Shown: positions 8,666 to 43,291 of the stretch, piece by piece
Numbering within the stretch: position 1 is the stretch's first letter
Layout of the letters: every line of letters begins with the position of its first letter
DNA from: Candidatus Moanibacter sp.
GTDB taxonomy: Bacteria; Verrucomicrobiota; Verrucomicrobiia; Opitutales; UBA2987
Direction: 5' to 3'
Length of the DNA: 64,000 nt
Assembly (NCBI GenBank): GCA_965215885.1
Contig: CBDCEW010000096.1
Span: 32,001 to 96,000, forward strand
Notes under the pieces: generated by a model
The model's input: only the letters and a program-made list of their open reading frames with translations
Database searches by the model: none
Told to the model about the DNA's origin: nothing
Made by a program: the position numbers and the translations under genes

Positions 8666-8764
8666 TAGGAAGATGTCGGTGGTGAAATCGGCCCCGATCC
8701 ACGAACGCACATAAAGAGCAGGTCCCCACCGAAGAATCGCAAAGCGAGATCCGACAGATTCCTA
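8666..8764. repeat. REP/MITE family C with arms TAGGAATCTGTCGGA; contains an empty IS110 target
   Basis: taggaagatgtcgg at 8666 is inverted relative to tccgacagattccta at 8750-8764. Confidence 0.7.
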
Positions 8765-25092: not shown

Positions 25093-26526
25093 GTGACATC
25101 TCGACGGGATTTCATAAAATTGACCGGATTAATTGTTTCCAGCATGGCTTTCCCCGCGATCGACTCTAAGTCGGGATTAGTTAAGAGTAGACCGAATATC
25201 CTCTGGATTCATGTGGACGATATTTCTCCCCACACGAGCTGTTACGGGGAGACGGCAATAGAGACGCCTAATATCGACCGTCTGGCACGGGAAGGCGTGC
25301 TCTTCAGAAATGCATTTTCAACCTCACCGGTATGTTCTCCGGCCCGTTCGGCGTTGATCACGGGGATGTACCAGACTTCGATTAATGCTCAGCATCATCG
25401 TTCCTATCGCTATAAAGTGAAAAATGAGCTGCCCGAGTTCGTTGAAACGCTACCCCGGACGTTTCAAAACCATGGATACTATACCGTCCTGGCTCATGTA
25501 CAACATCCAGCCAAACAGCGATATTTTCCGGCAAATCCGAAGAACCTGGGAAAATCAGACTACAATTTTGAGTGGGATACCGAGATCTACGATTCAGGTG
25601 GCTCTCCCGGACTGCAGTTCAATGATTGGAAGGGCTGGACTCCCGATAATCCATTCTTCGCGCAGGTGCAACTGCGAGGGGGGAAATGCCGACCAAAAGA
25701 CATCGCGGATAGCATCAACCGGAAAAGCATCCGATACCCTCCCTATTATCCCCACCATCCGATTCTTAGCGAGCGTTGGGCCGATTACCTCGCGTCTTTA
25801 ATCCATCTCGACAAGGAAGTAGGTCTGATTCTGGATCAATTGGAATCCCGCGGTCTCAAGGAAAGCACGGTAGTCTTCTTCTTCTCGGATCACGGTCTCG
25901 AGCATATTCGACACAAGCAGAGCCTCTATGACGGCGGCATCCAAATTCCTCTGATCGTACGATGGCCGGCAACCGTGACGCCGGACACAAGACGGTCCGA
26001 TCCAGTCCTTCAGATCGATATCGCGGCATCTTCTCTGGAAGCGGCAGGTATACCAATTCCCGCACGTATGGAAGGCGTTCCCCTATTCGGAGCCAACTCT
26101 CGCACACGAGAATTTATCGTTGCGGCACGCGATCGCAGCGGAGCAGATATCGACCGGATACGCTGTGTTCGCACCGAACGGTTTAAGTACATTCGTAATT
26201 TCCACCCGAACAAACCGTATTTTGAAAATAGCAACTACATGTATAACAGACGCATGTCGAAGGTCATGCGAGAGCTACACGAAGCAGAGAAACTTGATTC
26301 CGTACAAGCGGCGTTTATAGGGCCGCATCGACCTGCTGAGGAATTGTATGATCTGCAGGTTGATCCATACGAGGTGCATAATCTGGCCAAAAGTCAAAAA
26401 TGGCGCAAACTCCTTGCCGACATGAGGAAAATCCTGACTGAATGGATCTGTCAAACCGGTGATATGGGCCAGCATCCAGAGCGCAGGGACGAGATCGACG
26501 AAAATACATGGTACCACCGCACATGA
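25093..26526 (+). CDS. Sulfatase with Tat signal
   Basis: SRRDFIK, PNILWIHVDD, CSPARSALITG and SDHG motifs. Confidence 0.92.
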   Translation: MTSRRDFIKLTGLIVSSMAFPAIDSKSGLVKSRPNILWIHVDDISPHTSCYGETAIETPNIDRLAREGVLFRNAFSTSPVCSPARSALITGMYQTSINAQHHRSYRYKVKNELPEFVETLPRTFQNHGYYTVLAHVQHPAKQRYFPANPKNLGKSDYNFEWDTEIYDSGGSPGLQFNDWKGWTPDNPFFAQVQLRGGKCRPKDIADSINRKSIRYPPYYPHHPILSERWADYLASLIHLDKEVGLILDQLESRGLKESTVVFFFSDHGLEHIRHKQSLYDGGIQIPLIVRWPATVTPDTRRSDPVLQIDIAASSLEAAGIPIPARMEGVPLFGANSRTREFIVAARDRSGADIDRIRCVRTERFKYIRNFHPNKPYFENSNYMYNRRMSKVMRELHEAEKLDSVQAAFIGPHRPAEELYDLQVDPYEVHNLAKSQKWRKLLADMRKILTEWICQTGDMGQHPERRDEIDENTWYHRT

Positions 26527-26573: not shown

Positions 26574-26755
26574 CTAGCCCGGACATTTCACACACATCGT
26601 AGCGAGATCGCGTAGCTTGCTGGGAATCAATGCCCTATCGCAGTCCGGCGGGCGACAGCGTGTTAGAACCTTCTGAGGTCGCGGGACAAGAGAAGGCTTT
26701 GAGACGCAGTGAGATCCGCGATCGCAGCAGATGGTTTGTGAAATGTCCGGGCTAG
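26574..26755. mobile_element. MITE family B, copy 2 (182 bp)
   Basis: Perfect terminal IR ctagcccggacatttcaca; collinear with 8436-8617. Confidence 0.87.
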
Positions 26756-26972
26756 GAATTTGCCGGACGTTAGTACGTGTGTAGCGTGATTTGAAGCTGC
26801 CCCGGTCTTGCGCCGGGGTGCCGCACGTTTTACAGCTACAATCAGTCAATGGCACCGCGCTTACCCTCCGCCCCTTCTCGCCCCAGTGCGCCCGGACTGG
26901 GGCGAGAAGGGGCGGAGGGCATGGAAGCATCCGGTGTATAGCAAGAAGCGTGCACCACCCCGGCGCAAGACC

Positions 26973-28346
26973 CATAAGCGCTAACTTGTTTGCTGACCTG
27001 GGAATCTGACCTCTAACTGTGGTCGGCGTTGCCGTGGAGACTCTGCTAAGCCTTGAGCTATATCGTTCCAATTTTCTATCACTTGTCGCAAAGGCACAGC
27101 GGGATCGACGGCCCGCTGGAGTTGATGGAAGACGAAGGCAAACTCACGCCATCGACTCTGCTGTTTTTTCCGGCTCCAGGACATATCCCCAGGGGGAAAT
27201 AGAGATCGCACTTTGAATGATCTTCTCGGTGATCAGGGCCGCGAAGAGCTTGCCATAGAGCCACGCCTTGGCGCTTTCATCGTCATACTTAGGCAGATGT
27301 CCTAACTGTGCGATCTGTTTGAATCGTTTGAAGACCAGTTCCACCTGCCAGCGGATACGATACCATTCGAGCACCTCCAGTGCGGAAAAGAGCGATTCAG
27401 GAAAAGTCGTCAGCACCATGACGTATTCGGCGTAATAGAGCGTTTCGGGCATCAGCTTCTCGCCCCGCCTGCTGGCGATTCGCCGCAATCTCTTGTGGGC
27501 CATGGCGATCGCTTGCTCGCTTTTGCGGATGGCACACACCCGCGCTGGCAACGGGGGCTGATCCGATGCGGGCACCATGACTGGCCAAGCGCCCACCTTG
27601 CCACCGGCCCCGATCTGCTCCAGGCAGGCGGTCAGGTTCAGAACCTCTCCCCGAGGATCGAGCAGCCGTATGTTGTGCGGTGCCAGCCGTATACTTACAA
27701 AAGCCCCTTGGGAGGCTGCATATTGAAGCCCGGAAGCCTGGCAGTATCCCCGATCGGCGATCACGTAGTCACCTGCTGCCAGCGGAAACTGTCTAAGCGA
27801 CTCGCCGGTGCCTTCACCTTGCGCTGGCGTAAGTTTGAAAAAATCGCACGCCATCGAAGGAACTCGCAAGCTATAGTGCACACGCCACAAGCTGCCCGTC
27901 TTCCCGGGTTCCTTCACCATCGTCGCATCGATCAGACGAAACTCCCGTTGCCCCACCGCCCCCAAATCCAGGCCACGCTCGCGAAACAATGCCACGCACA
28001 GCGAATAAAGCCAGTCCTTGCACTTGCGCAGCCGCTTCAGCAACGCTACGTCTGACAGTTCCGCCAACTGCGCCTGGCGCGCACGCACCACGGTTTCGCG
28101 CAGCGAATACCCACATGCCAGGTGCACCATCAGAATCCTCAGCAACTTCCCAGGTGCCTTGTCCCGGCGCAATCCCTTCAACGCGTTGGTCTTCTTAGCC
28201 AATTCTTTCCATTGCGGCGGGAAAAAAGACATCAGCACGCTCCAGTCTTCATCCATCATGGTCGACCTCCCTTCAATTCTGCTAACCTGTTGCGGAAGTC
28301 CACAGCAGGAAATGCACTATGTCAAGCAAACAAGTTAGCGCTTATG
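26973..28346 (-). mobile_element. IS4-family element
   Basis: IR cataagcgctaacttgtttgct; 11-bp TSD ggcgcaagacc at 26962-26972 and 28347-28357. Confidence 0.92.
27144..28259 (-). CDS. IS4 transposase
   Basis: LIDAT, IADRGY and YRIRWQVELVFKRFK motifs. Confidence 0.92.
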   Translation of the reverse strand: MMDEDWSVLMSFFPPQWKELAKKTNALKGLRRDKAPGKLLRILMVHLACGYSLRETVVRARQAQLAELSDVALLKRLRKCKDWLYSLCVALFRERGLDLGAVGQREFRLIDATMVKEPGKTGSLWRVHYSLRVPSMACDFFKLTPAQGEGTGESLRQFPLAAGDYVIADRGYCQASGLQYAASQGAFVSIRLAPHNIRLLDPRGEVLNLTACLEQIGAGGKVGAWPVMVPASDQPPLPARVCAIRKSEQAIAMAHKRLRRIASRRGEKLMPETLYYAEYVMVLTTFPESLFSALEVLEWYRIRWQVELVFKRFKQIAQLGHLPKYDDESAKAWLYGKLFAALITEKIIQSAISISPWGYVLEPEKTAESMA

Positions 28347-28430
28347 GGCGCAAGACCGGGGCAGCCGGCAATCGAATGCAGGACGCTAAACAGGTACGGA
28401 CGTTACGTCCGACAGAAAACTGAGGTAGTC

Positions 28431-28436
28431 CGTCAA
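28431..28436 (-). promoter_or_regulatory. -35 box TTGACG of the IS110 circle-junction promoter
   Basis: Lies 17 bp from the -10 TATAGT (30110-30115) only when the ends are joined at the core. Confidence 0.8.
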
Positions 28437-28467
28437 GGGATTTTTTGAGTTTTTTCTCATGTTGTGT

Positions 28468-29778
28468 TTACAAGGCGTTGGCATTTGCTTGCTGAAGTCT
28501 TTTCCACACCGGTGAACCGGTGCGTTGGAGCGATTGGAGATACTTTTGCTCATCGTAGCGTTCGCTATTTTGCCAACAGCGAAACAGAATGCGGGTCCAC
28601 TTGAGAGCGAGGGCACGAAGAATGGTTTGGCGGGGTTTGCCCTGTTCTTTTTTGATCTGGTAAAAGGCCTTTGCCCAGGCACAGTTTCGGATCGAATGTT
28701 CGGCAAATTCAACGAAACTTTGCCGCACGAAGGTAGGAGCCGCCCACCGCCAGTTGACCATTCGTTTCGGTTGTCCGGTTCTTTTGTCCTGCCCGCTGTT
28801 GATCGTGACCGGAGCGGATCCATTCCACTGGGTCATGTTCTGGGCCGTTTCGAAGTGCGAACGATCGGTCCCGAACGCGCACAGCAACCGGGGACTCATG
28901 ACCTCGCCGGCTCCGGGAATGCCACTGAACACGGCTGCATCGGGATGGCTTCTGAATAGCTCCCTGATACGCTTCTCATACGCTTTGATCTGCGGGCACA
29001 GGGTCAAAAGCTGTCCGGCCAACGTCTGTGCTTTTCTGCTGGATGCTTCAATGATGGCTGCATCTTCGGTCAAGGCTCGTGCGTTACCGATCAATTCGAG
29101 ACGCTCCTGGATTTTGGCGTCACTGCGACAGTTGTGCTTATAGAAGAACTTTCGCAAGACACCCTCCGATGCTCTGTGCAGCTTCTTGAGGGTCGGCCAA
29201 CGCAATATAAAGTGCAGGCACAGGCCACTGCCTAGATCATCGAACAATTTCAAGACCAAAGGGTTATATTGCTTCAGACAACTGCCCAACTGCTGTTCGA
29301 GGCTGGTAGCCTGATCGACGAATCCACGGCGGTCCTCGCACAACAGGTTCAGCTCCCGTGTTTGGGCCGTGTCAGGTATGAAACATTTGGTAAAAAGCTC
29401 GGGATGTTTGAGGAAAAACTCCGCGTGTATTTGCGCATCGACCGGGTCGCTCTTGGCCCCTGATGGATACAGCGCCCGGCGATAATCCTTCGCCCTGGCC
29501 GCATGCACTGGATAGATATCGACAAACTCCAAGCCCATCAGAAAGTTGATCAACCCTCCTCGCTTCTGGTCCACCACCATGGCCATGCGCTTGCCCACGC
29601 TGGCATACTTTTCTCTCATCTCTACGGCAAATTCGTGCAAGCTGACCGCATCCTGCGCCACCTGTCGATGGGTCCCTTTTCCCGTTTCGCTCTCTATGAT
29701 CCACAGATCGTTTTTCTGATCCGCCCAATCAATTCCTATCACCACACTATATCGATTTGTTTTTTCCCTTTTCTGCAT
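28468..29778 (-). CDS. IS110 DEDD recombinase/transposase
   Basis: GIDWAD, KSDPVDA, IPGAG and APVTINSG (catalytic Ser region). Confidence 0.93.
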   Translation of the reverse strand: MQKREKTNRYSVVIGIDWADQKNDLWIIESETGKGTHRQVAQDAVSLHEFAVEMREKYASVGKRMAMVVDQKRGGLINFLMGLEFVDIYPVHAARAKDYRRALYPSGAKSDPVDAQIHAEFFLKHPELFTKCFIPDTAQTRELNLLCEDRRGFVDQATSLEQQLGSCLKQYNPLVLKLFDDLGSGLCLHFILRWPTLKKLHRASEGVLRKFFYKHNCRSDAKIQERLELIGNARALTEDAAIIEASSRKAQTLAGQLLTLCPQIKAYEKRIRELFRSHPDAAVFSGIPGAGEVMSPRLLCAFGTDRSHFETAQNMTQWNGSAPVTINSGQDKRTGQPKRMVNWRWAAPTFVRQSFVEFAEHSIRNCAWAKAFYQIKKEQGKPRQTILRALALKWTRILFRCWQNSERYDEQKYLQSLQRTGSPVWKRLQQANANAL

Positions 29779-29820
29779 CCCTTTGTTCCTTTAGTTTGTC
29801 TTTTTGCTTTTTTCAAAGGC

Positions 29821-30103
29821 ACTGGATGTCCAGGCGAAGTCCTTATAGTTGGATCCTGTTATGAGGATGTAAACTGAGTGTTCGTTTTCGGTCATCCAGG
29901 CAGGCCGTCCACTCGAAATTCTGTCGGAAGTCCTCTTCGGACTGATTCCTAAGTTCGTAGTGGACGGCTGCCTTTGAATATTTTCACCCTTAGCCAAACA
30001 ATCTCTTTGACCCATCGCCAACCACTGATCGGCCAAGTTATTCACAAAGGGGCCTCGCCGAGTTTTTCCTGCGGCTCCACTCGGCCCCTTGGATGAATAA
30101 CCT
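29821..30103 (-). ncRNA. IS110 bridge RNA: 5' hairpin, target-binding loop and donor-binding loop
   Basis: Three stem-loops whose internal-loop strands match the target and donor junctions (see findings). Confidence 0.88.
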
Positions 30104-30121
30104 GGAGCTACTATAAGATTC

Positions 30122-31270
30122 CTATGGCATTCCAAGCTCCTGACAGAAGGTATTAAAGGGGAGAATGCGTTGTCCCGTTTCTTCGTCACCAAAGTCGTTA
30201 TGACCGATGTGAACGAAGAAGAAACGGGGAATGTCGGTGCGTTGTCTGAAGTATTCAAACCTTGAGGAAGCTTTGGATTCGTTGAGCTTGCATTCTACAG
30301 CGAACTCAGCCTTCCCATCTCTTAATACGACAAAGTCGACTTCTCGTCTATCCGTATCACGGATGAAGCGAAGCTCCATTTCGAAGCCTTCTGTGTCTTC
30401 GATGTAACAGCAGTACTTTAGCAGTTGGCAGGCCACGAGATTTTCAAAACGGGCGCCCGCGTCGGATACTCGAGTCCAATCCCAGAAATAGAGCTTGTTC
30501 TCTTTCTTAACCGCACGGATCTTCTTGTGACCAAAGGGAGGAATACGGAAGACTGTATAGAGCCGCTCCAATATCGAGATCCAGCTCTCTATTGTTTCAT
30601 GGGCTACCCCTAACAGAAGACTGATCGAACGAATCGACAGAGGCGACCCAACACATTCAGGTAGATGATTAAGGAGGAGTTCGATTTTGGATACGTCACG
30701 CACCTGCTCCAATTCTCGCAGATCGTCATACACGACTCTTGCCGTGTATTCACGTAACCATCGTCTATGAAATCTGGCAGTCGCTCTAAATAGTGGTTCG
30801 GGAAACCCTCCAAATGATAGTAGCTGCTCCAGGTCGGAAATGGTAGGGCTTCGAGTGAGTTCCATGAGCGAGAGCGGGAAAAGCCTGAGAAAATGGTAAC
30901 GACCCTGAAGCGAATCACCACCTCTTCGATAGTAGTCGAGACGCGCCGAGCCGGTAACCAGAAATGAGATTTTGCTCTTATGTTTGTCGTAGTACCCCTT
31001 GACTAGATTTCGCCAACCTCCGAATTTGTGAATTTCGTCAAATATGACCAATGGCTGCTTCGATGGTAGATGGCCGTCGAGAATGCGCTTTCGGTCAGCC
31101 AGCGAATCCCAGCTGAGGTAGGCAGGATGAGATTCTTTTGCGTTTTCCGGCCGGAGACATTGCAGGGCCAAGGTTGTCTTACCCACTTGGCGTGGCCCTC
31201 CCACAATGACCATTCTGTTTTCCAAATCGGCTTTGACTGCTTCCAAGAGATATCTCTTAACTGGAATCAT
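30122..31270 (-). CDS. AAA_14 ATPase with DUF4143 domain
   Basis: GPRQVGKTT, FDEIH, TGS..DSLQGR, GGFPE and EVDFV...VECK motifs. Confidence 0.92.
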   Translation of the reverse strand: MIPVKRYLLEAVKADLENRMVIVGGPRQVGKTTLALQCLRPENAKESHPAYLSWDSLADRKRILDGHLPSKQPLVIFDEIHKFGGWRNLVKGYYDKHKSKISFLVTGSARLDYYRRGGDSLQGRYHFLRLFPLSLMELTRSPTISDLEQLLSFGGFPEPLFRATARFHRRWLREYTARVVYDDLRELEQVRDVSKIELLLNHLPECVGSPLSIRSISLLLGVAHETIESWISILERLYTVFRIPPFGHKKIRAVKKENKLYFWDWTRVSDAGARFENLVACQLLKYCCYIEDTEGFEMELRFIRDTDRREVDFVVLRDGKAEFAVECKLNESKASSRFEYFRQRTDIPRFFFVHIGHNDFGDEETGQRILPFNTFCQELGMP

Positions 31271-31537
31271 AGTATGAGTAATTTCGAAACCACTCTAAGA
31301 TACTCATGAGTAATTTAGAGTAAAGTCTAAAATACCCATGCTATCCATCTGTGCAGACCCTGGAAGAGTTATGTTCTCGGGGTCTGCCAGAGATCGTCGA
31401 ATCGGAAGCCTGTCCTGAGCCAGTCGAATGAATAAACCCCTTTCCCGGCCTGAGCTTGTCGAAGGCCTACACGTGTGGCGGATGATAACGGCACTTGCGC
31501 TTACTGACCGGCAACCTCAATTTCATCGGATCGAGCC

Positions 31538-34500
31538 ATGATTAAACCATTCGCAAACGAAGCAGGAACCAACCGTGTCAACATCACCGTAGACGGCCTT
31601 AACCCGGATGCTCCCGTGCCGGTTCCCGTGCGGTGCGGAGTTCCCCTCCCGAAGGGTCGGATTACGGATCCATCGCAGATCGCTCTGCGGGATGAGGCAG
31701 GACAACCCGTCCCTTTTCAACCCGTGGTGACCGGGTATTGGCAGGATGAATCGCTGAAATGGGTGAACTTGGGATTTTTGGCAGAGGGCGCTTCTTACGT
31801 TGCCGAGATCGGAACCGAAAACGTCGAGGATATCGACGAGTCGCGTATTGTGGTGGAAGAGAGCGATGAGGCGATCGCCATATCCACCGGCCCGCTCAAA
31901 CTCGAAGTTCCGACGACGGGCGCGACCTGTTTCCCCGGCCGGGTCTGGATCGACCGCGACGGGGACGGGGTATTCTCCGACGCCGACTTGGTGAACGAGG
32001 GCGGGCCACTGTGGGTTCGTATTGAGGGCGAAACAGAGGGAACATTCCGGGCGCGCACCTGTAGCGCGAAGCTTGAGACCGCCGGGCCATTCCGCACCAT
32101 CGTTCGGCTGGAAGGGCAATATGTCCGAGAAGACGGCGCGGAGGTCGACCGCTGGGTGTTGCGAATTCAAGTCTACGCGGGCTGCGATTTTCTGACCGTT
32201 CAGCACAGCTTCATGAACACCGTCGATGTGCGGCACACCCACACCATGGCAGTGGGGCTCGAATTCTCCGTGACCGATACGACGGGTGCCTCGGTTGTGA
32301 TGGGGATTGACGGTAAGAACGTGCCGGCCACCCCATCGGCGACCCTCTCGGCTGTTCAAGTGAACGCGCAAACGCCAACCTTCCCAAAATTCGACCAGTT
32401 CGAACCGGTCTGCACGGTCACCGCAGACGGGGAAACGGTGGCGACTGGCGCCAAATCGGACGGCTGGTTGAGCGTCGAAAGCGCCGGCGGGACGTTCACA
32501 TGCGGGTTGCGCGACATCTGGCAGAAGCACCCGGGCGGATTTGAAGTCGACCTGCACCGCGGGACGGTGGCCGTCATGATCGTTCCGGACACCGGCGAGC
32601 CCTACGATTGGAAGGCCGGGCGCAAACCGGAGATGACGGCACGCACCGGTGGCCCGTGGCGCAGCTTCGGCGACGACGGGATCGGATTTACGGACGAGAT
32701 GATTATTGGATTCGGTGGCGACGCCGTGGCGGAACAGGCGCGGGCGAAGGCGTTCTGCGCCGTTCCCCACGCGCTGGCGGATCCGCGATGGCTGGAGCAC
32801 ACCCGGGCACTGGGCCACCTGCCGGCCTGTGACCGGGAGGCGTTTCCGGAGGCGGAGCGCCAGCTCGACCGGCTCGTGGAGTGGATCTGGCGGCATGCCC
32901 ACGAGTATTTTCACTGGTACGGCATCGCTTGGGGCGGGATACAGACGCACTACCAGCCGCGCAGCGAGCATTGGTCGGACCTCACGGAGCGGTATGCGTG
33001 GCTCAATGCGGAGGCGGACACCGCTGCGGGGGTGCTGCAGCACTACGTGCGCACCGGCAGCCGCAAGGCGTTTCTGCTCGGGCGCTCGATGCTCCGGCAC
33101 GACCAGGATGTCGGCACCTCCCACCGCTCCGGCTACGGCCGGCGCCACTACGTCTACGCCTGGGGTCAGCGTGGAGACTGGTCGCACACCTACCTCTACG
33201 CCCCATCCATCTACTACCACCTCACGGCCTGCGAACGGACGCGCGATTTTATCGAAATAACGGCCGGTGTCACCGAAGCCGCGAGCGACAAGGGCAGCTT
33301 GATTCGGACCACCCACAATGTCATTCGCTGTGCGCTCTGGCTCTACGAAATCACAGGGGATGAGAAGTGGAAGCGCAAGGGCGCAGCGATCATGGCCAAC
33401 ACGCTCGTGCTCCAGGAGGCAGACGGGCTATTCGGGAAGAGCGGTCTGTTTACAAATATCTACCTCCTCTGGGCGATGGAGCTCTACGACCGGATGATCG
33501 GCGGCGACGAGGTGCGCCAGGCGCTGATGCGCTGCATGCGGGCGGAAATTACGATGCCCGGAAGGTTGGAGATGAACTTGTGGGTGCACTCGATCGGTGA
33601 AGGGCTGGCGCAGGCCTACCGCTATTCCGGCGGCGACACCAGCTTCCTCTGGCCGGGCTTGCGGGACTTGGCGAATATCCGGTGGGATCGGATTTACGAG
33701 CGGTACGACCCCGTCCTGCGATTCCCGCGCTGCGGCTACGAAGTGCTCGGAGCGAACGGCGAGGTCCGGCACGACAGTTTCGTCGGCATGCACGAGACCG
33801 GGTTCAAGCTGACCAAGATGCCCTTCCTCTTGTGGGCGGCGCGCGACGCCGGGCTGACCGAAGCCGAGTTCTCCAGGAAAATCGATACCGGCGCCACAGG
33901 TGTCTTCTTCCCGGGCATTCAGCCGTCGGAGCCGGTGCGGTGGAATGTTTTCGAAACCCTGGACCTGCCCGGCTGCAACACCGCGCCCGTCGGAGATGAT
34001 CCGTTTAACCTAGACTGCGATGTGAATATGTCCGGCCTGCCGTGGGGCTGCACGGTCGCTTTCGGCGGGGTGCCGTTTGGCCTCCAACCCGCCGCGAGTG
34101 CCGACGACTATGCCGTCATCTGCCTGGCGGCCGAAGGAATCCGCGCGGATACGCGTGGGCGTGGCGGCATCGCGCCTCTACTTTCTCGGGCAGGTTGTCG
34201 CTTATGCCGGTATGGAATACGATCGTTTGCTGGGTAAATACGTGGTGGAATTCGACGACGGTTCGACCGAAGCGGTCGAATGGCGCAATGTCCGCAATTG
34301 CGAAGCCTTCGGCCTGGAGCACGTCGCCCTCGACGCTCCCCTCGCTCAAATCTGGGCGCCCCGCCTCTTCGATACCGGCAGCACCGACCTCGTGCACATC
34401 AACACCCTGCGGGTGGAAACCGACGGGCGCGCCGTCATGGCCGTCCGCTTCGAAGCCGCCGACAATGACGCCCGGCCGGTCCTGCTGGCCGTGACCGCCG

Positions 34501-36373: not shown

Positions 36374-37156
36374 TCAATCCACCACCACCTGGCTCTGCCA
36401 CCAATCGTCATTGGGCTTCCATTCAGGATCCAGGTACTCGGCGTGTTGTCTCTTGAACTCGGGCATCAGATCGTATTCCATCTTGTGAAGCCGCGCCCGC
36501 TCCTTCTCCCGATACTTGGCCCAGCGATCCGAGCTTGTCTGAATCGGTCCGTGGACTGAGTAGAAGGAAAGGTAGGCCACAAACGGCTCGTCTTTGTGTT
36601 CCTCGATCCAGTTGGCCGTTTCCATTCCCAGACGAATCGGGAGCGACTCGCCAGGGGGGCCATCCTCGAGATACGGGTTGTTGTATGGCGAAAAATAACC
36701 GCCCGGGGGAGATCCGACTCTGAAACCGCCTACGTTGACCTCGAAGCCGAACTGCTCGGGATGATTGCCCTCGTCCCCGAGATGCCACTTGCCGGCAAAG
36801 AATGCCCGGTATCCGGCGTCTCGAAGGACCTGGACAAAGGTGATTTCGTCTTTTCGCAGGCCATGCTCGTAGTCAGGTGGAAGCAGCTTGTTCTGACGCC
36901 CGAGCTCCCGCCACGTTTCACCGGATCGTGCCCCGATCCAGTCGGTGACGCCGTGGCGCGGGGTGACTTTACCTGTCAGGATACTCGCACGGGAAGGACT
37001 GCATACCTGGCATGTTGCGTAGCCCTGGGTGAACTGCATGCCCTCGTTGGCGATGCGGTCAATGTTGGGACTCTCGTAGAACGTGCTGCCTTCGCAGCTG
37101 AGATCGCGCCAGCCGAGGTCGTCTGCGAGGATAAAGACGATGTTGGGTGGGGTCAT
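36374..37156 (-). pseudogene. Sulfatase with large in-frame internal deletion
   Basis: PNIVFILADDLG, CSPSRAS and GKWHLG present, but the protein jumps from ...WAKYREK to a C-terminal tail with no SDxG region. Confidence 0.75.
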
Positions 37157-37312: not shown

Positions 37313-38659
37313 ATGAGCAATCGTCGTCCAAACGTAATCGTGTTTTTCACGGACCAGCAGCGATGGGATACAACCGGGGTCCACGGCAACCCGATGGATC
37401 TGACGCCCAACTTCGACCGAATGGCAGGTTGCGGCACCCATCTGGCGAATTCAATAACGTGTCAGCCTGTCTGCGGTCCGGCCCGATCGTGCTTTCAGAC
37501 TGGTCTCTACGCGACAACGACCGGTTGCTTCAGGAACGGCATCCCCCTGCCGAAAGACGCGACGACACTGGCGCATCTGTTCAAAGATGCGGGATATAAT
37601 ACCGGTTACATCGGCAAGTGGCATCTGGCGGATCAGGAGCCGGTGCCCGAGGACCAGCGGGGAGGATACGACTTCTGGTTGGGATCGAACGCGCTCGAGT
37701 TTACGTCCGACGCATACAATCTCGTGATGTACGACGGTGATAACCTGCCGCAGAAGCTCCCTGGGTATCGAGTCGACGGTGTGACCGATGCCGTCATCCG
37801 GTATATCGATGAGCATCAGGCAGACCCGTTTTTTCTGTTCGTGTCTTTTATCGAGCCCCACCACCAGAATCACCTCGACGACTATCCTCCTCCCGACGGC
37901 TACAGGGAACGGTATACCGGCGGCTGGATCCCGCCCGATCTCGCCGCGCTGGGCGGATCCACCCACCAGCACCTCGGCGGATACTATGGGATGGTCAAAC
38001 GTCTGGACGAGGCACTCGGACGCCTGCGGGACGCACTAAAGAGCCTCGCGCTGGCTGAGAATACGGTGCTCCTTTTCACCTCTGACCACGGCTGCCACTT
38101 CAAAACGCGAAACAGCGAATATAAACGGTCCTGTCACGAGAGTTCCGTTCACGTTCCGACGGCCCTGTATGGCCCCGGATTCGAGGGAGGTGGACGAGTC
38201 GATGAACTGGTCAGCCTGATCGATCTGCCTCCGACGCTGCTCGACGCGGCCGGCATCGACGTGCCAACGGAGATGCAGGGGCGTTCGATTCTGCCGCTGC
38301 TGAAGAGAGAAACGGATGACTGGCCGGAAGAGGCCTTTATCCAGATCAGCGAGGCCCAGGTCGGGCGCGCCGTCCGGACGGCGCGGTGGAAATACGGTGT
38401 CGATGCACCCGAAAGGTACGGTCGGCGGGACGCCGGATCGGACACCTATGTCGAGCAGTATCTATACGATCTACAGGCGGATCCGTATGAGTTGGCAAAC
38501 CTCGTGCAATCGGAAGCGCACGAGGTGGTGCGTGAGGTGATGAGGAAACGGCTCGTCCGCCGGATGACAGATGCGGGTGAGGAGGCGCCATCGATTGTAA
38601 AGGCGGAAGTCGGGCCCAGCGGACAGAGGAGGGTGACTGAGGAGGAAGCTCAGTCTTGA
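37313..38659 (+). CDS. Sulfatase
   Basis: PNVIVFFTDQQR, CGPARS, GKWHL and TSDHG motifs. Confidence 0.92.
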   Translation: MSNRRPNVIVFFTDQQRWDTTGVHGNPMDLTPNFDRMAGCGTHLANSITCQPVCGPARSCFQTGLYATTTGCFRNGIPLPKDATTLAHLFKDAGYNTGYIGKWHLADQEPVPEDQRGGYDFWLGSNALEFTSDAYNLVMYDGDNLPQKLPGYRVDGVTDAVIRYIDEHQADPFFLFVSFIEPHHQNHLDDYPPPDGYRERYTGGWIPPDLAALGGSTHQHLGGYYGMVKRLDEALGRLRDALKSLALAENTVLLFTSDHGCHFKTRNSEYKRSCHESSVHVPTALYGPGFEGGGRVDELVSLIDLPPTLLDAAGIDVPTEMQGRSILPLLKRETDDWPEEAFIQISEAQVGRAVRTARWKYGVDAPERYGRRDAGSDTYVEQYLYDLQADPYELANLVQSEAHEVVREVMRKRLVRRMTDAGEEAPSIVKAEVGPSGQRRVTEEEAQS

Positions 38660-39678: not shown

Positions 39679-41572
39679 CACGGTATTTTGATTCTCGGAG
39701 CATTAGGTGATGATATTGATGGCCTTATGTAAGTTAAAGACGAAATCATCACAGAGTGCGGGAGTGGATTCAGCGCCCATGGAAGACTTGAGGCTGAGAA
39801 CCAGTTGCCTGCATGCAGCAAGAATTCTGGCTGCGTTATGATTACGGATCATACATCGATCTTCATCGAAGAAGCGATCCCTGGGGTAATGATTTTTATT
39901 TTCGATCGACCAATGGTTGCGAATTTTCGAGAGGAACTGTTGAGGGCTCAAATCGGCGGGATCGAGACTGCTTACGTAGTAAGAGCGTTCAGAGGAAGGT
40001 TCAGCTTTGTTTGGATAATGGAAGGTGCGTTGCACACAGGCGAACTGGCGGGCATGGGGCAGGCCGGCAGAGGGAGCGCTTAGAGAATGGGTTGCTATTT
40101 GACGTATTTCGAGTCGCCCATGGTCATTGTCCACGGTTTGGTGGAGAAAAAGGGGGTGGAGCTGAAGAGATTCTGAGCGTATTGATGCATGTTGGGCTGA
40201 TTGTCTTTAATTTGAATAACATAGTCAGCACTGAGTTCTTCGACGACGATGTGGGCAGTTTCTTTTTGATTATGCATGGCGTCGAAGGTGAAGGTGGAGC
40301 CGTCCAAAATGGGCATCTTTCGCAAGAGAGTCTGGGCGGCGGTGATCTCGTTGGATTTATCGGCGGTAGCGACTTGGGCTAAGGTTTGAGCGCTTTGGTG
40401 ATCGACTGCGGCCACCAGGTGCAGAGCCTTTGATTCTTCGGTGTTTGTGCCTTTGAGGGTCTTGCCGTCGACGGCAATATCGCGGGGCAAACAGCCGTCT
40501 TGTAAGCAGATGAATTCGGTGAGGGTTTTATCGAAGAGCTCGGCCTTTACGTTTTGCAAGACCCGATAGAAGACATCATAGCAAGGGGCCTTATAGCGGC
40601 CTGTTTTGGGGTTTTTCCAGGAGCGTAAGGCGCGCAATTGGGCTTGATTGAGATGATGGGCCAGGCGCACGATGCCCTTGAGGGTCTGTTTGCCGCACAT
40701 CGTGCCGAGCACAATCATGCTCAGGACCGTGGCGAGCCGATATCTAAGGCCCGCTTTACGACGGAAGTCTTCTATCTGATTGAAGCGTTCCCACAGGCTG
40801 CTCATCTGTTCCACTTTGAGGCAGACCGCATGGGAGTTATCGGTTTCATTGAGCGCCTGGCTCTGTGCCGCGGGCAATGGCCCTGAAGCGCGCAAAAGCT
40901 CAAGGGCATTAGCCTTGAGGGGTTTGACCCAGATCTGCTTGGGACGCTCATGGCGTTGATAGAAATCTTCGCGTTGGCGGCCATATCCCGCGCTCAAGCC
41001 CAAGGGCGTCCACCCGCTCGCTTCGTAGCAAGTGCCCCGGTGAATCTGTGGGTCCACGAACGTTTCCGCTACTAAGGGACGATAGCCAAAAGCCTCCTGC
41101 CAGTGATCGGCTAAGACTCTCAGGCACATACCCAACGTCTTGGAGGCCAAATTTGCAAGATCCACCCCGGGCAAAATCAGAAAACGCCGGTTCTGTACTA
41201 CCAGTTTCAATCGTGCATGCCGTTGCGCCCCGTCCCACCCGATCCATTCGTCTCGATCCTTCAGCCGGTAGGATGCGGCCCCCCACAAGAGCAGGCCCAT
41301 CCATTGCCCGTCGATCTGCGCCACATAGCGCAGGGTCTCTCCTGCGCTGCCCGCACTGTGTAAATAATGATGTTGTTTCAATAGATCATTGAATCGCTCC
41401 TGCTCTTCGGGCAGGACCAGACGCAGAGTTAAACGATCTATCGAAGGATTCAGTTGGTAAGATTTTTTGTCTTTCATCCCATCTTAACATGACTGATTCC
41501 CTCGGGTTTGTTTAGCTCTTTTTTTATCTTCTTGCTTATCAGCTAGTTGCTTCCTGGAATCCTTTTACCCTG
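39679..41572 (-). mobile_element. ISAs1-family element
   Basis: CAGGG/CACGG ends; 10-bp TSD tgttgaggcg at 39669-39678 and 41573-41582. Confidence 0.9.
39703..41477 (-). CDS. DUF4338-fused ISAs1 transposase in two frames (shift near CCCCCTTTTT at about 40146-40155)
   Basis: N-terminal HHYL..RFLILP..NLAS..ETFVDP..GTCY (DUF4338), then AVDGKTLKG, KSNEI, DAMH and IKDNQP; second frame has IRNHWSIEN..EDRC. Confidence 0.85.
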
Positions 41573-41815: not shown

Positions 41816-43291
41816 GTGCCTTCTCAATCACGCTCTTCGCACCGGCGCGCTCTGAACGGGTTAACGACATTGACAGCCACCCAGACAAAGACGGGCGAAG
41901 CGCCGGCCGCGATTCTCCCCAACATCCTCTGGATCTGCACGGACCAACAGCGCTACGACACAATCACATCGCTGGGCAATTCGCACCTGCGCACGCCCAA
42001 CCTCGACAGACTGATCAAGTCAGGAGTCGCTTTCACGCACGCCTATTGCCAGTCACCGATCTGCACGCCAAGCCGGGCCAGCTTCCTGACCGGTATGTAC
42101 CCCGACGCGGTCCACGGCTGCATGAACGGCAACGATTACTGGGATGACGCAGCGCCTCTCATCACAAGGACTCTGGCCGAGTCGGGTTACGACTGCGGTC
42201 TGTCTGGCAAGCTTCATCTGTCTGCCGCCATCGGGCGAATCGAAAAGCGTCCCGACGACGGCTATCGGGTCTTTCACTGGTCTCATGACTCCGAGGACCG
42301 GTGGCCCGAGGGCCACGCCTACAGCGACTGGCTGAAAGCTCAAGGCAAAGACTACAACACGCTTCGCAAGGAGCACGGGTTCATCCCCGCTCCTCTGCAC
42401 CAGACGACCTGGTGCGCCCGGATGGCGGCCGAATTCATCCGGGAGAAACGAAACGGGCCGTGGCTCTTCAGCTTGAATTTCTTCGACCCCCACTCGCTCG
42501 GCGGCAAGTTCTATCCGCCAAGGAAGTATCTCGACCGGTTCGACGTCGAATCGCTGCCCGGCCCGCAATTCCGCGACTCCGACCTCGCTGCGCAAAAGCG
42601 CCTGGAAGGGGTCGACTTCCAGACAGCGGCCATCAAATACGATAAGAGGGAGGCTCAACTCTATCAGGCACAGTACTGGGCCCTGATCGAGATGATCGAC
42701 GAGAATGTCGGCCAGCTGATGGAGGTCCTGGATGAGACGTGCCAGCGAGACAACACGATTGTCATCTTCATGTCCGACCATGGCGAAGCGTTGGGCGATC
42801 ACGGCCTCCGCCGAAAGGGCTGCCGCTTCTACGAGGGCCTGGTCCGCGTGCCGTTGATCGTCTCCTGGCCGGACCGCTTTACACAGGAAATTGAAAGTGA
42901 CGCCCTCGTCGAGCTAACCGACATCGTCCCCACCCTCCTGGAAGCAACGGGCCTCCCCGTGCCCGAAGAGATGCACGGAAGATCACTCATGCCCATTCTT
43001 GACGGAAGATCTGATCCATACGATCATCGCGATTTCGTTCGCTCGATTTACTATCGCGCCCTCACGGGTACAAGCTATGCCTCAATGATTCGCACGCGGG
43101 ACCATAAACTGGTGATCTATCACGGGCACGGGATCGGCGAGTTGTTCGACTTGAAGAAAGACCCTCACGAGCATGAAAATCTATGGGATGACCCGGCCCA
43201 CGCCGATATCCGCTTCAAACTGGTAACAACCGCATTTGACGCGGCAGCCTTCGCCGCGGACCTCGGCCCTCGTCGCGTGGGTGGAGGGTAA
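41816..43291 (+). CDS. Sulfatase
   Basis: PNILWICTDQQR, CTPSRAS and MSDHG motifs; true start uncertain. Confidence 0.9.
   Translation: MPSQSRSSHRRALNGLTTLTATQTKTGEAPAAILPNILWICTDQQRYDTITSLGNSHLRTPNLDRLIKSGVAFTHAYCQSPICTPSRASFLTGMYPDAVHGCMNGNDYWDDAAPLITRTLAESGYDCGLSGKLHLSAAIGRIEKRPDDGYRVFHWSHDSEDRWPEGHAYSDWLKAQGKDYNTLRKEHGFIPAPLHQTTWCARMAAEFIREKRNGPWLFSLNFFDPHSLGGKFYPPRKYLDRFDVESLPGPQFRDSDLAAQKRLEGVDFQTAAIKYDKREAQLYQAQYWALIEMIDENVGQLMEVLDETCQRDNTIVIFMSDHGEALGDHGLRRKGCRFYEGLVRVPLIVSWPDRFTQEIESDALVELTDIVPTLLEATGLPVPEEMHGRSLMPILDGRSDPYDHRDFVRSIYYRALTGTSYASMIRTRDHKLVIYHGHGIGELFDLKKDPHEHENLWDDPAHADIRFKLVTTAFDAAAFAADLGPRRVGGG

Follow-up and report, generated by a model that had tools for sequence, protein, structure and literature searches.

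IS621 of Escherichia coli, a member of the IS110 group, has a 177-nt bridge RNA, and formation of its circle junction reconstitutes a promoter (Durrant et al. 2024, PMC11208160). The catalytic residues of its recombinase are D11, E60, D102, D105, and S241–G242, and the handshake position that follows the core complement of the right target guide is known from the same element (Hiraizumi et al. 2024, PMC11208158). Bridge recombinases have also been described for ISCro4 / IS622 (bioRxiv 10.1101/2025.05.14.653916). ISPpu9 and ISPpu10 of Pseudomonas putida are multicopy IS110 elements that insert in repeated extragenic palindromic or stem-loop sequences (PMC12288879; bioRxiv 10.64898/2026.03.19.712850), and natural targeting of REP sequences by IS110 elements is already known. 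For ISPpu10, a palindromic context of the repeat is reported to raise efficiency. Published accounts of the mechanism date back to 2024, and the element described here is a fresh example of it, not a new kind of system.

The DNA analyzed was a stretch of 64,000 nt, referred to here as the window. We consider it highly probable that positions 28414 to 30117 constitute an intact insertion sequence of the IS110 group, probably mobile at present, with a left end that specifies a bridge RNA of about 280 nt and a gene for a 436-aa serine recombinase of the DEDD-type/Tnp kind. The features discussed below are as follows.

28414–30117, minus strand: complete IS110-family element of 1704 bp, counting both terminal CT cores, with limits identical across 10 copies
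28468–29778, minus strand: gene for the 436-aa recombinase, with PF01548 at residues 14–173 and PF02371 at residues 283–374
about 30034–30104, minus strand: 5′ hairpin of the bridge RNA, from the fold
29900–29972, minus strand: target-binding stem-loop (TBL), from the fold, the alignment, and the covariance model
29822–29899, minus strand: donor-binding stem-loop (DBL), from the fold and the covariance model
29944–29951, minus strand: left target guide (LTG) plus core C, TAGGAATC
29920–29928, minus strand: right target guide (RTG), TCCGACAGA, made up of 6 nt of right target, the core complement AG, and one A at the handshake position
29869–29878, minus strand: left donor guide (LDG), CTCAGTTTAC
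29842–29849, minus strand: right donor guide (RDG), ACTATAAG
30118–30124, minus strand: left target half TAGGAAT, whose TAG terminates the AAA_14/DUF4143 ATPase gene at 30122–31270
28408–28413, minus strand: right target half GTCGGA, in the host flank
28416–28424, minus strand: left donor half (LD), CTCAGTTTT, located at the right-end tip
30110–30115, minus strand: right donor half (RD), TATAGT, which doubles as the −10 box of the putative junction promoter
28431–28436, minus strand: −35 box TTGACG of that promoter, in the right end, 15 nt before CT and 17 nt from TATAGT after joining

The element and its recombinase

Read on the minus strand, the left end of the element began with CT (30117–30116) followed by TATAGT, and the right end finished with CTCAGTTTT followed by CT (28415–28414). 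The non-coding left end was 339 nt long, and no inverted-repeat pair was found between the two ends. The genome that contains the window (6.36 Mb in 105 contigs, 53% G+C) carried 10 full-length copies with no more than three base differences, plus three fragments. Look-alikes of RpoB in a protein atlas belonged, with equal scores, to clusters of Bacteroidota, Planctomycetota, and Verrucomicrobiota. These 10 copies were located at 10 separate loci with different outer flanks, and every one of them had the CT core at both ends. All eight of the gene copies listed were open frames without stops. The IS110 element proposed in the preliminary description was confirmed base for base, and the near identity of the copies and their open frames agreed with its claim that the element is intact.

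The recombinase matched PF01548 (RuvC-like DEDD) with 64.5 bits against a cut-off of 29, and PF02371 (Tnp) with 38 bits against a cut-off of 21.3. Residues D17, D111, D114, S328, and G329 were invariant in all 30 aligned homologues. The second DEDD residue was D70 in the window protein and in its three to four nearest relatives, whereas E occupied this position in 26 of the 30 homologues, as it does in IS621; we regard the substitution of D for E as conservative. Residues D17, D70, D111, D114, and S328–G329 are named here as candidate catalytic residues. The solved IS621 and ISCro4 proteins were only faintly similar, with E values of about 1e-4 and alignments limited to residues 251–413. The top-scoring solved relative was ISCro4 / IS622 (PDB 9t56; E 9.1e-5), a member of a distant clade, to which the Tnp domain and the SG loop could be aligned; S328–G329 corresponded to its ESG, and D111/D114 to its D-x-x-D. 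For IS621, whose protein has 326 aa compared with 436 aa here, the E value was 1.7e-4 over residues 251–410.

The bridge RNA and its guides

When the left end (29779–30117, minus strand) was folded as RNA, it gave a 5′ hairpin and two stem-loops with internal loops, the arrangement that had been read from the minus-strand non-coding end in the preliminary description. The minimum free energy was −121.4 kcal/mol (z = −5.61), and none of 100 shuffled sequences folded as well. Two extra small hairpins were located between the 5′ hairpin and the TBL. In an alignment of 12 left ends, the target loop was framed by invariant ACGAA ... TTCG and the donor loop by invariant ACGAA-CTCAG ... CTATAAG-TTCG; the guide positions of the target loop were variable. 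Two-sided changes preserved 17 of the 22 pairs predicted from this alignment by RNAalifold, which did not predict the donor-loop stems; only a 4-bp CGAA/TTCG helix was added there by hand.

A covariance model of 153 positions and 26 pairs matched 78 of the 83 sources searched. The five misses, counted from the table (L036, L049, L052, L090, and L091), had shortened matches or lacked the upstream region. In the 84-row alignment produced with this model, 94.7% of the cells paired, double changes were present in 24 of the 26 pairs, and the covariation score was 0.528, compared with 0.16 for shuffles and 0.03–0.06 for slid partners; having been fitted to the model, this alignment favors the structure. 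A compensatory pair was also found in the inner TBL hairpin, which was GTCC/GGAC or GTCG/CGAC when the RNA from the window was compared with that of the sister element in genome G118 (see below). A search of Rfam 15 with window positions 27000–31500 at E values up to 1 gave no matches, which means only that no curated model reaches this region. Two acidobacterial relatives had an additional match (L020:1152–1212 and L022:1163–1227), which was confined to the target loop and lay some 150 nt upstream of the complete bridge RNA. Because the LTG of this extra loop was unlike that of the main loop, these elements are suggested to be possible dual-target elements.

The position of the RNA bears on the branch of the family to which the element belongs. 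Guide RNAs of the IS1111 type sit downstream of the recombinase gene. Assignment to the IS1111 / seekRNA branch instead of the IS110 branch would be compatible with the two Pfam domains, which both branches share, and with the habit of targeting repeats. However, the model matched the window exactly once, at 29821–29974 (minus strand, 130.8 bits), in the left end and upstream of the gene, and the 53 nt between the stop codon (28468) and the element end (28414) leave too little room for a downstream guide RNA. We consider this assignment exceedingly improbable and treat the element as a member of the IS110 branch.

All four guides had been claimed to match the target and donor junctions of the element itself, and each of them did. 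The LTG was identical to the left flank plus core C at 8 of 8 positions, and the RTG was the reverse complement of T-CT-GTCGGA at 9 of 9. The LDG agreed with core C and with all but one of the nine positions at the right-end tip, and the RDG was the reverse complement of CT-TATAGT at 8 of 8. At the second core position the LTG had A, not T. Position 9 of the LDG, just before the core, was A where the donor has T (donor T7), and the base following the core complement in the RTG was an A, able to pair with donor T7. The base following the core in the RDG was G, which could form only a G–T wobble with target T7. These matches are beyond chance, because the target was common to nine of the 10 copies and because guide–flank matching among the homologues exceeded that in 10,000 of 10,000 permutations, as described below.

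The element resembles IS621 in having an RNA in its left end with a 5′ stem-loop followed by target and donor loops; in the reading of the bottom strand by the LTG and LDG and of the top strand by the RTG and RDG, with the core within each pairing; and in its CT core, circle-joint promoter motif, DEDD plus Ser-Gly set, and use of a repeat as natural target. It differs from IS621 in the length of the RNA (about 280 nt) with its two additional small hairpins, in an RTG that reads six target bases past the core compared with four in IS621, in the A at core position 2 of the LTG, and in the second acid, D here and E in IS621. The IS621-type bridge RNA architecture named in the preliminary description is supported by the domains, the position of the RNA, the loops, the strand rules, the way the guides covary with targets, and the promoter motif at the junction. 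As far as sequence can tell, no feature that defines an IS110-group bridge system is missing from the element. In the seven text supplements of PMC11208160, two 20- to 21-nt loop stretches and one 24-aa protein stretch from the window had no occurrences; forms written as RNA or with gaps would escape such a search.

Guides, flanks, and target repeat

A total of 1588 protein relatives were detected. The closest were 79, 79, 70, and 59% identical, and the rest were at most 49% identical. Eighty loci, 34–46% identical, were fetched from named genomes, whose titles included Verrucomicrobiae, Pirellulaceae, Acidobacteria, and beta- and gamma-proteobacteria. The ends of each element were located by means of its own donor guides, and the LTG and RTG were then compared with the flanks in one fixed register; donor-guide matches are not independent evidence here, because they were used to find the ends. 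Among the 74 model hits considered, a left boundary was found in 48 and a right boundary in 30, and merging of identical guide pairs left 42 left and 26 right comparisons. The mean agreement between an LTG and its own left flank was 4.10 of 7 positions, compared with 1.97 for other pairings (42 distinct guide pairs), and that between an RTG and its own right flank was 3.85 of 6, compared with 1.65 (n = 26). None of 10,000 permutations reached the observed LTG or RTG mean. Scores of 2 of 7 or lower were obtained in 14 of the 42 left-flank comparisons; part of these probably reflect register or boundary errors, as in L089, which was visibly shifted by one base. The target guides of homologues thus track their insertion sites. 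With this comparison and the fold (z = −5.61), two of the checks proposed in the preliminary description were run, and both supported it.

In a number of relatives (L021, L039–L041, L044, L050, and others) the RDG ended in TT and the RTG had TT at the core position. These elements appear to use an AA core, and other members of the clade appear to use CC or CG instead of CT.

In the genome that contains the window, nine of the 10 copies were inserted in the target [T/C]AGGAAT-CT-GTCGG[A/T]. The left flanks of these nine were TAGGAAT (six copies) and CAGGAAT (three), and the right flanks were GTCGGA (seven) and GTCGGT (two). Empty sites, recognized as the uninterrupted 13-mer AGGAATCTGTCGG, were present 256 times, compared with 0.2 expected. 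This 13-mer is the tip of a dispersed repeat with the consensus CTAGGAATCTGTCGGACTTAG, so that the natural target is the 16- to 20-nt tip of a dispersed repeat family. Convergent pairs accounted for 96 of the 256 empty sites (48 pairs), and 31 of these pairs spanned 96 nt; the repeat therefore looks REP-like or MITE-like. The element resembles ISPpu9 and ISPpu10 in its multicopy insertion into such sequences, but the host group and the repeat family are different, and the arrangement in convergent pairs is that of the repeat found here. Within the window, the repeat tip CTAGGAATCTGTCGGAC occurred at 8749–8764 (minus strand) and 26753–26768 (plus strand). In the genome as a whole, this tip was common to several different repeat bodies.

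Protein relatives were also sought in 201 genomes of the same order. The only close relative was in G118, a genome of 8.3 Mb from the same family, whose protein was 79% identical and had eight matches listed, making this sister element multicopy as well. Another of these genomes, G116, had a protein match of 34% identity with one in-frame TGA. The element in G118 had the same ends and the same RTG as the element in the window, and its LTG was TAGGAGG. Its left junctions were TAGGAGT-CT in six copies and TAGGAGG-CT in one, and one copy had no readable left end; thus, all seven readable junctions were in AGGAG[T/G]. The right flanks were GTCGGAC in seven copies and GTTGGAC in one. Empty sites in G118 comprised 591 of the AGGAAT type and 237 of the AGGAGT type, the former being 2.5 times commoner; the corresponding numbers in the window's genome were 256 and 7. 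Because its insertions were all in AGGAG although AGGAAT sites outnumber them, the sister element, judged from these junctions, picks the site variant that agrees with its guide and is the rarer of the two. By our own arithmetic, the probability of six of six insertions in AGGAGT by blind choice is approximately (237/828)^6 = 5e-4, a value to be read with the sites not being fully independent. The flanks of the copies, the abundance of empty sites, and the contrast with G118 bear out the earlier claim that the element has its own target specificity, and this natural variation of the guides suggests that the element may be programmable.

The tenth copy (L009, contig C84:54652–56355) was at a site, CTCAGTTTA-CT-TATGGG, that is unlike the usual target. 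It is the donor loop, and not the target loop, that this site matched: all nine LDG positions and the core agreed, as did 4 of 6 positions of the right donor half. When every genomic CT was scored against the nine LDG and six RD positions, no free site reached 13 of 15; the best free site scored 12, and 30 sites scored 11. With L009 taken out, its rebuilt site would reach 13 of 15, so that no other site in the genome would have mimicked the donor as well before the insertion. We see about an even chance that the donor-binding loop directed this natural insertion. Donor-loop recombination is known so far from cell-free and plasmid experiments, according to a recent report (Xie et al. 2026, bioRxiv 10.64898/2026.08.31.748434). 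Among the IS621 off-targets described there, L009 fits the LD+RD and LD-only classes, and it differs from them in being a fixed natural insertion in a genome and not a read from an editing experiment. A 5.9-kb inverted duplicate with 99.66% identity at the start of contig C84, where locus L011 occupies C84:1–491, had the same right junction as L009; either a true duplication or an assembly or strain effect could account for it.

Several other features were noted near the element in the window. An IS4-like element with a DDE_Tnp_1 domain (26947–28366; gene 27144–28259, minus strand) had six near-identical copies in the genome, and here one copy of the repeat tip lay on each side of it, the two being inverted relative to each other. 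At about 26815–26970 there was a palindromic insert of 157 nt. The target tip was considered as a terminal repeat of this neighboring element and was rejected: by BLAST, the six IS4-like copies shared only about 26947–28366, and the tip therefore lies about 47 nt outside the IS4-like element. A 460-aa open reading frame at 40095–41477 (minus strand) had a DruA-like PF14236 domain (E 1e-25) together with DDE_Tnp_1_assoc and DDE_Tnp_1. Four sulfatase genes, one of them short, were present at 25093–26526, 36374–37156, 37313–38659, and 41816–43291, with a PcRGLX-like lyase gene nearby (31538–34237). This region is a polysaccharide-degradation neighborhood interrupted by at least four transposase genes.

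Junction promoter, transcripts, and proposed cycle

Joining of the two ends across the circle junction, and only this joining, forms a −35/−10 pair, TTGACG-N17-TATAGT. The same layout was found in 21 of 27 homologous elements with at least 9 of 12 matching positions and in 17 of 27 with at least 10 of 12. A sigma-70 scan of the integrated copy (28300–30300) gave no sites, compared with a mean of 1.3 for shuffled sequences. At the level of motifs, these results suggest an IS621-like sigma-70 promoter at the circle junction.

The element was present in 20 run rows from nine studies, one of which contributed two metatranscriptome runs, and contigs from DNA runs spanned the whole element. In the contigs of four public runs, which drop rare forms and are informative only for the parts that they cover, neither circle joints nor empty sites were found. 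The two metatranscriptome runs gave contigs at 29829–30062 with a depth of 21.5 and at 29823–30123 with a depth of 13.7, for both of which DNA carry-over is possible. Contigs for the middle and 5′ part of the gene had depths of 2.6–5.9, with a single figure per contig, which is a poor measure; another RNA contig, which extended over the gene's 3′ part and the flank, had a depth of 17.5. One RNA contig ran 6 nt into the host flank. The break between RNA contigs near 29823–29829 coincided with the 3′ end of the modeled RNA. Because there is a single depth for each contig, because the gene-and-flank contig was also deep, and because DNA carry-over and the read-through into the flank must be considered, these contigs give a weak hint of bridge RNA expression.

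An RNA directly upstream of the gene and on the same strand, with one contig reading through from the host flank, might also be expected if the left end were mainly a cis-acting 5′ leader for translation or stability of the recombinase, with the protein picking the target. Such a leader would have no need of loop strands that follow the flanks, and the guide–flank matching that exceeded all 10,000 permutations argues against it, as does the association in G118 of a single-base change in the LTG with seven of seven insertions in the rarer site variant. We regard a leader function of this kind as highly improbable, and the evidence points instead to a guide function for the left-end RNA.

A cycle for the element can be proposed on the model of the published IS621 scheme. 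Excision would leave the two ends of the element joined through a single CT, and the joint would create the TTGACG-N17-TATAGT promoter, from which the RNA would be transcribed. The RNA would be bound by the recombinase. In its target loop, the LTG would pair with the bottom strand of [T/C]AGGAAT-C and the RTG with the top strand of CT-GTCGGA; the donor loop would pair in the same mode with the joined ends CTCAGTTTT-CT-TATAGT. Tetramers of the recombinase would then catalyze strand exchange at the CT cores.

A real element that has become a silent passenger, its copies being recent duplicates and its RNA or recombinase no longer made or active, would show no circle junction in the contigs of the four runs, no more than a weak hint of expression, and no promoter-like site in the integrated copy, and its second catalytic acid might have changed from E to D. 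However, the substitution is conservative and was found in the closest relatives too, the 10 copies with at most three differences and open frames in the eight genes listed occupy 10 loci with different outer flanks, and the sister element in G118 is also multicopy. Loss of activity is therefore judged unlikely, and we favor an element that still moves.

The window element is a cleanly documented natural example of a bridge-RNA system in a large clade far from IS621. Three of its aspects may interest those who engineer bridge recombinases: the right target guide, which is longer than that of IS621; the pair of sister elements facing the same repeat family, which provides a natural single-base switch of specificity; and the fixed insertion at a donor-mimic site. 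If L009 was indeed directed by the donor-binding loop, then donor-loop recombination, of the "half-match" or LD+RD kind, would shape where bridge elements land in wild genomes too. For genome biology, the element is another IS110 member living on the dispersed repeats of its host, and the known mechanism is unchanged.
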